From a virus (Duplodnaviria > Heunggongvirae > Uroviricota > Caudoviricetes): 14,328 nt of DNA. The stretch lies in the IMG/VR virus record IMGVR_UViG_2526164690_000029. One strand, written 5' to 3'. Shown here piece by piece: positions 3,703-14,328 of this stretch. A program made the position numbers and the translations under genes. Under the pieces are notes generated by a model. The model was given only the letters and a program-made list of their open reading frames with translations. It ran no database searches and had not been told where the DNA came from. Within the stretch, counting starts at the first letter, position 1, and the number at the start of each line of letters is the position of its first letter.

Positions 3703-3748
3703 CTGATGAATCCCCTAATGATTTTGGTAAAAATCATTAAGTTAAGGT

Positions 3749-3817
3749 GGATACACATCTTGTCATATGATCAAATGGTTTCGCGAAAAATCAATAATCA
3801 GACAACAAGATGTGCGA
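3749..3817 (-). ncRNA. IS10 RNA-OUT antisense RNA (position inferred from IS10 architecture)
   Basis: Established IS10 biology: pOUT drives an ~69-nt antisense RNA covering the transposase start. Coordinates are placed by offset from the IS10 outside end, not from independently recognised motifs. Confidence 0.4.
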
Positions 3818-5018
3818 ACTCGATATTTTACACGACTCTCTTTACCAATTCTGCCCCGAATTACACTTAAAACGACTCAACAGCTTAACGTTGGCTTGCC
3901 ACGCATTACTTGACTGTAAAACTCTCACTCTTACCGAACTTGGCCGTAACCTGCCAACCAAAGCGAGAACAAAACATAACATCAAACGAATCGACCGATT
4001 GTTAGGTAATCGTCACCTCCACAAAGAGCGACTCGCTGTATACCGTTGGCATGCTAGCTTTATCTGTTCGGGCAATACGATGCCCATTGTACTTGTTGAC
4101 TGGTCTGATATTCGTGAGCAAAAACGACTTATGGTATTGCGAGCTTCAGTCGCACTACACGGTCGTTCTGTTACTCTTTATGAGAAAGCGTTCCCGCTTT
4201 CAGAGCAATGTTCAAAGAAAGCTCATGACCAATTTCTAGCCGACCTTGCGAGCATTCTACCGAGTAACACCACACCGCTCATTGTCAGTGATGCTGGCTT
4301 TAAAGTGCCATGGTATAAATCCGTTGAGAAGCTGGGTTGGTACTGGTTAAGTCGAGTAAGAGGAAAAGTACAATATGCAGACCTAGGAGCGGAAAACTGG
4401 AAACCTATCAGCAACTTACATGATATGTCATCTAGTCACTCAAAGACTTTAGGCTATAAGAGGCTGACTAAAAGCAATCCAATCTCATGCCAAATTCTAT
4501 TGTATAAATCTCGCTCTAAAGGCCGAAAAAATCAGCGCTCGACACGGACTCATTGTCACCACCCGTCACCTAAAATCTACTCAGCGTCGGCAAAGGAGCC
4601 ATGGGTTCTAGCAACTAACTTACCTGTTGAAATTCGAACACCCAAACAACTTGTTAATATCTATTCGAAGCGAATGCAGATTGAAGAAACCTTCCGAGAC
4701 TTGAAAAGTCCTGCCTACGGACTAGGCCTACGCCATAGCCGAACGAGCAGCTCAGAGCGTTTTGATATCATGCTGCTAATCGCCCTGATGCTTCAACTAA
4801 CATGTTGGCTTGCGGGCGTTCATGCTCAGAAACAAGGTTGGGACAAGCACTTCCAGGCTAACACAGTCAGAAATCGAAACGTACTCTCAACAGTTCGCTT
4901 AGGCATGGAAGTTTTGCGGCATTCTGGCTACACAATAACAAGGGAAGACTTACTCGTGGCTGCAACCCTACTAGCTCAAAATTTATTCACACATGGTTAC
5001 GCTTTGGGGAAATTATGA
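3810..5018 (+). CDS. tnp: IS10 transposase (402 aa)
   Basis: ORF MCELDILHDSLYQFCPELHLKRLNSLTLACHALLDCKTLTLTELGRNLPTKARTKHNIKRIDRLLGNRH... matches the Tn10/IS10 transposase as recalled. Confidence 0.95.
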   Translation: MCELDILHDSLYQFCPELHLKRLNSLTLACHALLDCKTLTLTELGRNLPTKARTKHNIKRIDRLLGNRHLHKERLAVYRWHASFICSGNTMPIVLVDWSDIREQKRLMVLRASVALHGRSVTLYEKAFPLSEQCSKKAHDQFLADLASILPSNTTPLIVSDAGFKVPWYKSVEKLGWYWLSRVRGKVQYADLGAENWKPISNLHDMSSSHSKTLGYKRLTKSNPISCQILLYKSRSKGRKNQRSTRTHCHHPSPKIYSASAKEPWVLATNLPVEIRTPKQLVNIYSKRMQIEETFRDLKSPAYGLGLRHSRTSSSERFDIMLLIALMLQLTCWLAGVHAQKQGWDKHFQANTVRNRNVLSTVRLGMEVLRHSGYTITREDLLVAATLLAQNLFTHGYALGKL

Positions 5019-5031
5019 GGGGATCTCTCAG

Positions 5032-5040
5032 AGCATGATA
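5032..5040. repeat. IS10 target-site duplication, right copy (AGCATGATA)
   Basis: Identical to 3694..3702. Confidence 0.9.
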
Positions 5041-5639
5041 CCGATAAAAATCGCCCATAAGATCTTATCGAAATTGTAACCGCCAGCGCAATCGCTGCTG
5101 ACAGTAGCAAAAGAGGTACCTGAATCTTCTGTCTCAATATAGAAAACTCAATAATTGCCGGCACAAACAATAATTCCACAGCAAAATAAAGGCGAAATAC
5201 ATTTAGCTCTTGCATAGAATGTTTTCTTTTCACTGCGAAAAAGAATACAACACCAATACCCAACCGATAAGAAATATAGCAATGACGATAACTGCAAAAA
5301 ATAAACTTCTGGCAACATCATCAACACCTGCACCTACAATCCACCATGGGAAGCCGTAGTAAAAAGAAGTACCCCATCCATAGAAATAAGCACTCCCCCA
5401 TCCAAGGCATCCCATGTAGGCAATAAAAAGTGAAGAACTCCTGAGCAGCGCACCATCCTTCATAACCACCCCAATACAAGATGATAACATTGGCTTACAA
5501 CTCATAACAAAAGCAATTCAATGCCGTCAAGAGGTTACAGGCTAAAAAAACTCTATTACATTGCAGTCAGCATGTTTACTACACAAATACAATTCAGAGC
5601 ATAAAAACTACTCGGCGGCAGGTTATTGAGACTCATCAA

Positions 5640-12388: not shown

Positions 12389-12420
12389 AAATAAAAAGGC
12401 CTGCGATTACCAGCAGGCCT
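12389..12420 (-). terminator. tR2: tR2-like intrinsic terminator
   Basis: Minus strand reads AGGCCTGCTGGTAATCGCAGGCCT followed by TTTTTATTT, matching the lambda tR2 hairpin downstream of ren as recalled. Confidence 0.7.
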
Positions 12421-12445
12421 GTTATTAGCTCAGTGATGTAGATGG

Positions 12446-12736
12446 TCATCTTTTAACTCCATATACCGCCAATACCCGTTTCATCGCGGCACTCTGGCGA
12501 CACTCCTTAAAAATTAGGTTCGTGCTCATCTTTCCTTCCCGTTCTTCCTTGGTAGCAAACCGGTAATACACCGTTCGCCAGACCTTACCTTCGATAACCA
12601 GAAGACCTGCCCGTGCCATTTTAGCCGCGGCCTGATTTATGCTGGTTACTGTTGCGCCTGTTAGCGCGGCAACGTCCGGCGCACAGAAGCTATTATGCGT
12701 CCCCAGGTAATGAATAATTGCCTCTTTGCCCGTCAT
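12446..12736 (-). CDS. ren: Ren protein
   Basis: MTGKEAIIHYLGTHNSFCAPDVAALTGATVTSINQAAAKMARAGLLVIEGKVWRTVYYRFATKEEREGKMSTNLIFKECRQSAAMKRVLAVYGVKR, near-identical to lambda Ren as recalled; the start overlaps the P stop. Confidence 0.9.
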   Translation of the reverse strand: MTGKEAIIHYLGTHNSFCAPDVAALTGATVTSINQAAAKMARAGLLVIEGKVWRTVYYRFATKEEREGKMSTNLIFKECRQSAAMKRVLAVYGVKR

Positions 12737-13434
12737 ACACTTGCTCCTTTCAGTCCGAACTTAGCTTTGAGTTCTGCGATCTTCGCCAGAGCCTGTGCAC
12801 GATTTAGAGGTCTACCGCCCATGACAGGAAGTTGTTTTACTGGTTCAGGGATCGCCTCACCACGGTTAATTCTCGCAGTCATATGGACAAGCTCATCTGC
12901 GGCCTTACGGCGTAATTCCGCATCAGTAAGCGCATTGGCCCGCATGTTCTGATACAGGTTGGTAACCAGCCAGTAGTGCGCGTTTGATTTCCACGGATAA
13001 GACTCCGCATCCGGATACAGGCCTCGCTTCCGGCAATACTCGTAAACCATATCAACCAGCTCGCTGACGTTTGGCAGTCCGGCGATAACGGATGCTTCTT
13101 CCCGGCACCATGCAACAAACTGCCCGGGTGATGGCAGGAATGGTCGATTCTGCCGACGGGCTACGCGCATTCCTGCGTTAACCTGTTCCATTGTGGTGAT
13201 CCCGTTTTCCCGGAAAGCCAGAACCCACTGGCGGCGGATTTCGTTCAGTTCGTTCTGGTCACGGTTAGCCAGGCTCGCCGGGAAAGTTGCCAGTAACTGG
13301 CTGAACACACCGTTGATGATCTGCGCTACCTGTTGTACCTGCGGCTTTTCGTCGTACTGTTCCGGCATGTTGTTGGCGATCCGACGCATCTGCTCACGGT
13401 CAAAGTTAACCATCTGTGCGGCGATGTTTTTCAT
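12733..13434 (-). CDS. P: Replication protein P (DnaB helicase loader)
   Basis: 233-aa ORF MKNIAAQMVNFDREQMRRIANNMPEQYDEKPQVQQVAQIINGVFSQLL…, essentially lambda P as recalled. Confidence 0.95.
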   Translation of the reverse strand: MKNIAAQMVNFDREQMRRIANNMPEQYDEKPQVQQVAQIINGVFSQLLATFPASLANRDQNELNEIRRQWVLAFRENGITTMEQVNAGMRVARRQNRPFLPSPGQFVAWCREEASVIAGLPNVSELVDMVYEYCRKRGLYPDAESYPWKSNAHYWLVTNLYQNMRANALTDAELRRKAADELVHMTARINRGEAIPEPVKQLPVMGGRPLNRAQALAKIAELKAKFGLKGASV

Positions 13435-14040
13435 AAATCCACCCCGTAAATCCAGTCAGTGTTTGTCAGGTCGAGTTTTGGTTTGCTGGCTGTCACGCCT
13501 GCCTGTTGCTTGTTACGGTTGATTTTCGAGCTGGGTCCACTTGTCGCGGAGTTTGGCCGGACTCAGCACGTTACCGGACCAGAAGTTGTCCTGGCAGGCC
13601 CAGCGGAAAAGCACACACATATCGCGGTGGTTACGTCCGTCACGTTCACGCATCAGGCGGATATCGTTAGCCCACCCTGCAAAATTCGGTTTTCTGGCTG
13701 ATGGTGCGATGGTCTTCACCATGTCAAACATCCACTCTGCGGCGGTCAGGTCTTCTGCTGTTCCCCACTTGCTGCCGCTCTGAATTGCAGCATCCGGTTT
13801 AACCACAGAAAGATCGTTTTCTGGCTGGTCAGAGGATTCGCCAGAATTCTCGGACGAATAATCTTTTCTTTTTTCTTTTGTAATAGTGTCTTTTGTGTCC
13901 CCCTGTTTTGAGGGATCTCCCTCATTTTAGGGGAACCTCCCTCGTTTTGAGGGATGCACCATTCTGAGATGTTTTTATTTGGTCCAAACATGCCGCCTTG
14001 CTGCTTGATAATATTCATTCTGACGAGTTCTAACTTGGCT
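13430..14040 (-). pseudogene. O: Replication initiator O, 3' two-thirds only: 5' end cut off by IS10, with further frame breaks in the iteron region and near the C-terminus
   Basis: AKLELVRMNIIKQQGGMFGPNKNISEWCIPQNEG and VVKPDAAIQSGSKWGTAEDLTAAEWMFDMVKTIAPSARKPNFAGWANDIRLMRERDGRNHRDMCVLFRWACQDNFWSGNVLSPAKLRDKWTQLE match lambda O but lie in different frames. A premature stop follows an extra A in gaaaatcaacc at about 13520. The IS10 outside end abuts the O coding sequence at 14040/14041. Confidence 0.85.
13861..13956. other. ori: lambda-type replication origin inside O: iteron repeats (13898..13956) plus AT-rich tract (13861..13895)
   Basis: Minus strand carries ATCCCTCAAAACGAGGGA, TCCCCTAAAATGAGGGA and ATCCCTCAAAACAGGGGGA followed by an A/T-rich stretch. 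Only three iteron-like units are present, where I recall four in lambda. Confidence 0.65.
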
Positions 14041-14328
14041 CTGATGAATCCCCTAATGATTTTGGTAAAAATCATTAAGTTAAGGTGGATACACATCTTG
14101 TCATATGATCAAATGGTTTCGCGAAAAATCAATAATCAGACAACAAGATGTGCGAACTCGATATTTTACACGACTCTCTTTACCAATTCTGCCCCGAATT
14201 ACACTTAAAACGACTCAACAGCTTAACGTTGGCTTGCCACGCATTACTTGACTGTAAAACTCTCACTCTTACCGAACTTGGCCGTAACCTGCCAACCAAA
14301 GCGAGAACAAAACATAACATCAAACGAA
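14041..14328 (+). mobile_element. IS10: Second IS10 copy, outside end and first 288 bp (runs off the window), same orientation as the first copy
   Basis: 14041..14328 is identical to 3703..3990, with CTGATGAATCCCC at 14041. Confidence 0.9.
14148..14328 (+). CDS. tnp: IS10 transposase, N-terminal 60 codons (partial at window end)
   Basis: Same sequence as the start of the transposase at 3810; ATG at 14148. Confidence 0.85.
   Translation, partial: MCELDILHDSLYQFCPELHLKRLNSLTLACHALLDCKTLTLTELGRNLPTKARTKHNIKR

Follow-up and report, generated by a model that had tools for sequence, protein, structure and literature searches.

Two directly repeated IS10 copies in a lambda-like prophage of Escherichia coli O111:H11 relatives, and a deletion between them in a near-clonal strain

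Two IS10 copies in a lambda-like prophage

The sequence under study, hereafter the window, is a stretch of 14,328 bp of a virus of the Caudoviricetes (IMG/VR record IMGVR_UViG_2526164690_000029), in which one complete and one truncated copy of the insertion sequence (IS) IS10 bracket part of a lambda-like prophage. Among complete E. coli genomes, 120 match at least 80% of the window; the best match is E. coli O111:H11 strain 88.0502 (NZ_CP077567.1; bovine, South Dakota), which is collinear with positions 249-14328 at 99.86% identity and whose locus is a lambda-like prophage adjoining yfaT/yfaA/gyrA. The features of the window are collected in Table 1, for which the annotation of the 88.0502 locus was transferred to window coordinates to give the gene map of the interior. 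Coordinates preceded by L001 refer to this locus, those preceded by L002 and L003 to the corresponding loci of strains UTAK-12 and 88-19539, and those preceded by L004 to a different lambdoid prophage of 88.0502.

Table 1. Features of the 14,328-bp window, in window coordinates.
Feature	Position	Strand	Remarks
bor/iss, Rz, lysozyme, holin	1047-2544	-	88.0502 annotation mapped
DUF3927 gene	between holin and 247-aa gene	-	88.0502 annotation mapped
247-amino-acid (aa) gene, 3' part	3410..3702	-	between Q and lysis genes; split by IS10 copy 1
Target-site duplication AGCATGATA, copy 1, left	3694..3702	.	perfect 9 bp
IS10 copy 1	3703..5031	+	complete, 1329 bp; outside end 3703, inside end 5031
Terminal inverted repeats, IS10 copy 1	3703-3725 and 5009-5031		17/23 match
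RNA-OUT antisense RNA, copy 1	3748..3817	-	Rfam RF00240, 98.8 bits, E 4.5e-20
IS10 transposase, copy 1	3810..5018	+	402 aa, single IS4-family DDE transposase
Target-site duplication AGCATGATA, copy 1, right	5032..5040	.	perfect 9 bp
247-aa gene, 5' part	5032..5490	-	window has a 1-base indel relative to L001
Late-gene antiterminator Q	5743..6366	-	L001 'antitermination protein' annotation mapped; present in the list of open reading frames (ORFs)
Ser/Thr phosphatase (NinI), NinG, HNH endonuclease	6363..8167	-	annotation mapped
Island gene, 590-aa orphan	8736..10507	+	low GC, 32-36%; opposite strand to phage genes
NinE, phage N-6-adenine methyltransferase, NinB, small hypothetical gene, Ren	11011..12736	-	annotation mapped
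Replication protein P	12733..13434	-	annotation mapped
Replication gene O, 3' two-thirds	13431..14040	-	frameshifted by 67-bp deletion; extra T at 13523 in the window too
Lambda-type ori	13860..13956	.	inside bracketed segment, 85 bp from copy 2, beside an A/T-rich stretch
Remaining ori iterons, three	13899-13917, 13919-13936, 13938-13956	.	UTAK-12 has six
Target-site duplication AACTTGGCT, copy 2, left	14032..14040	.	right counterpart in 88.0502, L001 27117-27125
IS10 copy 2, first 288 bp	14041..14328	+	ended by the window end; transposase gene starts at 14148
RNA-OUT, copy 2	14086..14155	-	Rfam RF00240
Single-base indels relative to 88.0502	1162, 1812, 5258, 6626, 9617, 11419, 11835, 11841, 13523		

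A repeat search found a sole long direct repeat in the window, positions 3703-3990 against 14041-14328, identical at 288 of 288 positions, an agreement far beyond chance, with arms lying 10,338 bp apart from start to start. The element to which the left arm belongs is IS10, of the IS4 family. It is bounded by CTGATGAATCCCCTAATGATTTT and the reverse complement of CTGAGAGATCCCCTCATAATTTC, which form imperfect repeats of ~23 bp, and its transposase matched both Pfam DDE_Tnp_1 (1.5e-24, 87 bits, cut-off 23) and NCBIfam transpos_IS4_2 (4e-121, 404 bits, cut-off 152); in the collinear genome of 88.0502, RefSeq names it 'IS4-like element ISVsa5 family transposase'. Moreover, RNA-OUT was detected in both copies over its full length (1-70 of 70) with the same 98.8 bits against a gathering score of 41, at nucleotides (nt) 46-115 of the element, where it overlaps the start of the transposase gene near the outside end; in copy 1 it is transcribed toward that end, which is also the direction of the phage genes. 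The motif GATC occurs in copy 1 at IS positions 67 and 1320 only, which we take to be the two Dam-controlled sites of IS10, one lying in the promoter region of the transposase gene and the other at the inside end. Thus the 1329-bp length, the 23-bp imperfect repeats, the 402-aa DDE transposase, RNA-OUT, the two GATC sites and the 9-bp duplication are those of IS10 (IS10-Right of Tn10; ISVsa5 in RefSeq), with no structural difference. The complete IS10 at 3703..5031 of the original prediction was accordingly exact in its coordinates.

A consensus promoter scan over copy 1 found no sigma-70-like site, and the orientation of pIN and pOUT is given here on account of the RNA-OUT match and the literature rather than of that scan. 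IS10L and IS10R differ at 19 positions according to the published figure, rather than at 16, and the copies are referred to here simply as IS10. As for target choice, AACTTGGCT agrees at 4 of 6 positions, and AGCATGATA at 2 of 6, with NGCTNAGCN, the IS10 hotspot consensus.

The second copy is complete in 88.0502 (L001 25788-27116), where it is identical to copy 1 at 1329 of 1329 positions and is bounded at both ends by AACTTGGCT, unlike the duplication AGCATGATA of copy 1, so that both its right end and its duplication are at hand. The original prediction had described the copy from 14041 as partial and as oriented like the first; the orientation holds, while the partial state is merely an effect of the window end. 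The 14040/14041 junction is present in 88.0502 at 100% identity over 300 bp, and beyond copy 2 that genome continues with the first 270 nt of O followed by cII, cro and cI. Copy 2 therefore splits O after about nt 270, at codon ~90 of 312, within the Phage_rep_O DNA-binding domain, and parts ori, the 3' part of O and P from the 5' end of O, cII, cro and cI, just as had been proposed from the sequence of the window, where the replication module was seen as cut off from its 5' end and from the immunity region. Both copies have the same orientation, and since all phage genes except the island gene lie on the minus strand, both transposase genes are antisense to phage transcription, with RNA-OUT and pOUT running along it. 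Read-through from pOUT may affect neighbouring phage genes.

Between the copies lie 9,009 bp (5032-14040). The segment holds Q, the nin region, the island, P and the 3' part of O, as the original prediction had listed, and in addition ren, ori and the 5' part of the 247-aa gene.

Relatives and empty sites

In the prophage of strain UTAK-12 both IS10 sites are empty, and the 247-aa gene and the 312-aa O are intact. The other top-ranked collinear genomes listed among the 120 with at least 80% coverage likewise cover window positions 249-14040 minus IS10, with the sites empty. By this comparison, the prophage would be present without either insertion in more than 100 genomes. A junction search over 5426 genomes found the left junction of copy 1 in two of them, its right junction in one, and the left junction of copy 2 in one. 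The structure, as judged from these comparisons, reads as two recent, separate transpositions into a native prophage, separate because each copy has its own duplication, AGCATGATA in one case and AACTTGGCT in the other.

The prophage of UTAK-12 carries a further IS10 insertion, in an ead/Ea22-like gene (L002 25942-27271). This element differs from the IS10 of the window at 16 of 1330 aligned positions, hence a different IS10 variant has struck the same prophage independently in another lineage.

Deletion between the copies in strain 88-19539

The second genome with the left junction of copy 1 is that of strain 88-19539 (NZ_CP077491.1), also O111:H11 and from the same source as 88.0502. Here the order at the locus is the 3' fragment of the 247-aa gene, a single IS10, the 270-nt 5' stub of O, cII, cro and cI, and the locus is without Q, the nin region, the island gene, P and ori. 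The IS10 (L003 20151-21479) is again identical over 1329 of 1329 positions; its left flank ends in AGCATGATA and its right flank begins with AACTTGGCT, the outer half of each duplication, which is just what a crossover between directly repeated copies would leave. When the flanks were compared with those of 88.0502, one mismatch was found in 16,782 bp and none in 12,288 bp (99.994-100% identical); because ~29 kb around the locus thus differ by one base, the two strains are near-clonal, and at this locus they differ in structure by the 10,338-bp deletion alone. No re-insertion of the excised segment was detected in 88-19539, from whose genome the right junction of copy 1 is absent. That directly repeated IS copies are substrates for homologous deletion had been anticipated in the original prediction, and the genome of 88-19539, with one IS10 that has the left flank of copy 1 on one side and the right flank of copy 2 on the other, supplies such a junction from a public assembly. 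A literature search on the strain names 88.0502 and 88-19539 returned nothing relevant.

Two insertions with separate duplications, empty sites in relatives, and an exact deletion product in a near-clonal sister strain are therefore present in these genomes, and we consider it very likely that two separate IS10 insertions in one lambda-like prophage were followed by a deletion between the copies. According to this explanation, two cut-and-paste insertions would have hit one prophage in a bovine O111:H11 lineage that has undergone an IS10 burst, copy 1 splitting the 247-aa gene between Q and the lysis cassette and copy 2 splitting the initiator gene O near codon 90. Two identical 1329-bp elements in the same orientation make a 10,338-bp direct-repeat unit, and homologous recombination between them, presumably of the RecA type, would loop out one IS10 together with the 9,009-bp segment from Q to ori and the truncated O. 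What is left over would be a single IS10 joining the lysis and structural genes directly to the 5' stub of O, cII, cro and cI; a product without the late-gene activator and the replication genes would therefore be a permanently grounded prophage remnant. The deletion may well have been neutral or beneficial.

Some points weigh against this explanation. The right end of copy 2 lies outside the window and is taken from a genome that is 99.86% identical to it; the window differs from both sister genomes, so that its own state past 14328 is seen only through relatives; the identity of the copies prevents mapping of the crossover, whose RecA-dependence is assumed; and the deletion genotype comes from one public assembly, that of 88-19539.

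Regarding the agent of the deletion, it appears very unlikely that the IS10 transposase made it, be it by intramolecular transposition, adjacent deletion or double-strand-break repair after excision. The element is clearly active in the lineage, with at least 40 copies, and Tn10/IS10 is known to promote adjacent deletions as well as inversions when its ends are used inside-out; however, the product contains just one intact IS10, flanked by the outer halves of the two original duplications, whereas inside-out transposition, using the inside end of copy 1 and the outside end of copy 2, would retain two IS10 copies and a new target junction, and an adjacent deletion from copy 1 alone would need a chance landing on the exact base and in the exact orientation of copy 2. 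We give just as little credence to the single-IS10 state of 88-19539 being an assembly collapse of the 10.3-kb direct-repeat unit with no true deletion behind it. Although the state is seen in one assembly only, that chromosome is finished and circular, 9 kb of unique sequence would have had to be dropped entirely, and the right junction of copy 1 and the left junction of copy 2 are both absent from it, while full-length 300-bp matches would have ranked first.

An assembly artefact in the window itself, in which copy 2 would be a misplaced, collapsed or duplicated first copy and O not truly interrupted, is extremely improbable. The window does stop inside the repeat with the right junction out of view, and its assembly seems error-prone, with conserved genes frameshifted through ~10 single-base indels and with its first 248 bp looking chimeric. 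Nevertheless the independent complete genome of 88.0502 has the identical junction, the full copy 2 with its own 9-bp duplication and the 5' end of O beyond it, which contradicts the collapse that the original prediction had named as the finding that would undo it; moreover, the deletion junction in 88-19539 keeps the right flank of copy 2.

As for a composite transposon, in which IS10, the 9 kb and IS10 would have arrived or be moving in one piece as a Tn10-like unit, a whole 11.7-kb unit does lie between intact ends that have the right orientation relative to one another, the outside end being that of copy 1 and the inside end that of copy 2, and the IS10 transposase is known to be able to pair one outside with one inside end, making mobility mechanistically possible, but the idea has practically no chance of being right, given that the outer flanks share no duplication (the left one has AGCATGATA, the right one AACTTGGCT, one per IS), that the interior is collinear with the uninterrupted prophage of UTAK-12 and other empty-site genomes, and that the inner junctions occur in one complete genome only. 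The bracketed unit, from IS10 through Q to the truncated O and IS10, was found in no record of the plasmid and phage collections searched; in the plasmid collection a coverage of at least 80% was reached by one record alone, which is 1.4 Mb long and matches the interior without the IS10 ends. The arms of Tn10 are inverted IS10 copies. The window shares with a composite transposon of the Tn10 type the two IS10 copies around a passenger segment, but in the window the two lie in direct orientation around a passenger that is native to the locus, the outer flanks have no duplication in common and there is no sign of movement.

State of the prophage and genes of the bracketed segment

The prophage bears further damage in its replication origin. 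A 67-bp deletion in the iteron array of ori is common to the window and 88.0502 and absent from UTAK-12 (window 13899-13956 against L002 18315-18437); it leaves three of six lambda-type iterons and frameshifts O. This deletion is a separate event from the IS10 insertion, and the data are compatible with either order of the two. Outside the window, the large terminase gene has an internal stop in 88.0502, 88-19539 and UTAK-12 (L001 9441-11369, L002 3441-5369 and L003 14139-16067). As the stop is shared by all three relatives, the prophage was probably defective before the IS10 insertions.

The 247-aa gene, of which L001 carries an annotated pseudogene fragment, is present intact in UTAK-12 (L002 9160-9903, WP_001302581.1). 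Its product had no match in Pfam, PADLOC, NCBIfam or the sequences of the Protein Data Bank (PDB), the only match being in PHROGs, to phrog_1521 (function unknown). A comparable result was obtained for the 590-aa protein of the island gene, with no match in Pfam, PADLOC, NCBIfam or PDB sequences and only phrog_9230 (function unknown) in PHROGs; we regard the gene as a candidate moron or defence gene. The low-GC flanks of the island gene extend over about 8200-11000, within the nin region, and a tandem array of the hexamer AGAAAT (8362-8426) lies upstream of it, one unit longer in the window than in 88.0502.

Quality of the window sequence

Compared with 88.0502, the window has 5 substitutions, the one extra AGAAAT unit and ~10 single-base indels, some of them in short homopolymer runs. 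Eight of the indels frameshift conserved genes, namely bor/iss, Rz, the 247-aa gene, NinI, the island gene, the methylase, NinB and O, a pattern that suggests long-read sequencing error rather than real pseudogenes. In the case of the island gene, a 1-base deletion in an A-run at 9617 breaks the frame, and it is because of this indel error that the gene shows as two ORFs (8655-9626 and 9680-10507).

The left end of the window deserves separate mention. Bases 1-248 depart from the sequence of this prophage in 88.0502, the joint lying at about 249-303; another lambdoid prophage of that strain has the identical sequence on its Nu1/nohA (DNA-packaging protein) side (L004 6001-6248), while from position 249 on the single-nucleotide polymorphisms follow the IS10-bearing prophage. 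These bases may represent either a local misassembly or a recombinant between prophages, which in the source strain possibly arose through a large inversion or translocation.

IS10 burst in the lineage

The chromosomes of 88.0502 and 88-19539 each have at least 40 IS10 places, as counted with a query that was almost wholly IS10 sequence. Among IS10-carrying genomes the median is 2 places, and at least 40 were found in only 9 of 20,395 records, among them the dam- strain ET12567. Loss of the Dam methylase as the cause of the burst is not supported, dam being annotated as intact (837 bp) in 88.0502. In contrast to IS10 of Tn10, the copies of this lineage are solo, without associated tet genes, and in unusually high copy number.

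Comparable expansions are known from the laboratory. The heat-evolved E. coli BM28 has 17 IS10 copies, a number called remarkable given the multicopy inhibition of IS10 (PMC10044804), and in BM28 (PMC10044804) as in ET12567 many solo copies go along with gene disruptions and deletions, as they do here. The sister strains 88.0502 and 88-19539, however, are natural bovine isolates of the 1988 era from South Dakota, with at least 40 copies and dam annotated as intact.

With so many copies in one chromosome a further step can be conceived, although we hold it to be most unlikely: the looped-out 10.3-kb circle, with IS10, Q, nin, the 590-aa gene, P and the three-iteron ori, might survive for a time if a co-resident lambdoid prophage supplied O in trans, or might re-enter at one of the at least 40 other IS10 copies. 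IS10 would then be a portable homology system shuffling phage regulatory modules between prophages, of which bases 1-248 of the window could be a trace.

IS10 and the dismantling of the prophage

The deletion takes away the late activator and the replication module, whereas the immunity region and the bor/iss gene stay. In pathogenic E. coli and Shigella, the IS-mediated grounding and decay that lambdoid prophages undergo follows the same course, in which an IS enters regulatory or replication genes, lytic genes are then lost, and immunity and cargo are kept. Examples of such decay in enterohaemorrhagic E. coli and Shigella usually involve IS629, IS1 or IS600, and the IS here is IS10 instead. 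Known cases include IS indels in the prophages of O157 EDL933 and the IS-rearranged stx prophage of S. dysenteriae (PMC6379469). A further difference from these is that the two-copy precursor and the one-copy product are both found here in near-clonal complete genomes and are resolved to the base.

IS10 biology with the 9-bp duplication, like the recombination of directly repeated IS copies, is long established and already known, and no new mechanistic question arises from either. For the study of these strains, it follows from the repeats that short-read assemblies will break at them, and prophage content and typing are unstable in these O111:H11 strains. Three stages of one process can be seen in public genomes: intact in UTAK-12 and the other empty-site genomes, doubly hit in the window and 88.0502, and deleted in 88-19539. 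Together they give a base-resolved natural example of insertion sequences dismantling a prophage, in which an IS burst can strip the late-gene activator and the replication module in one recombination step while immunity and cargo of the bor/iss type are kept; the main value of the locus lies in this clean three-stage natural series and in the lineage-wide IS10 burst that accompanies it.

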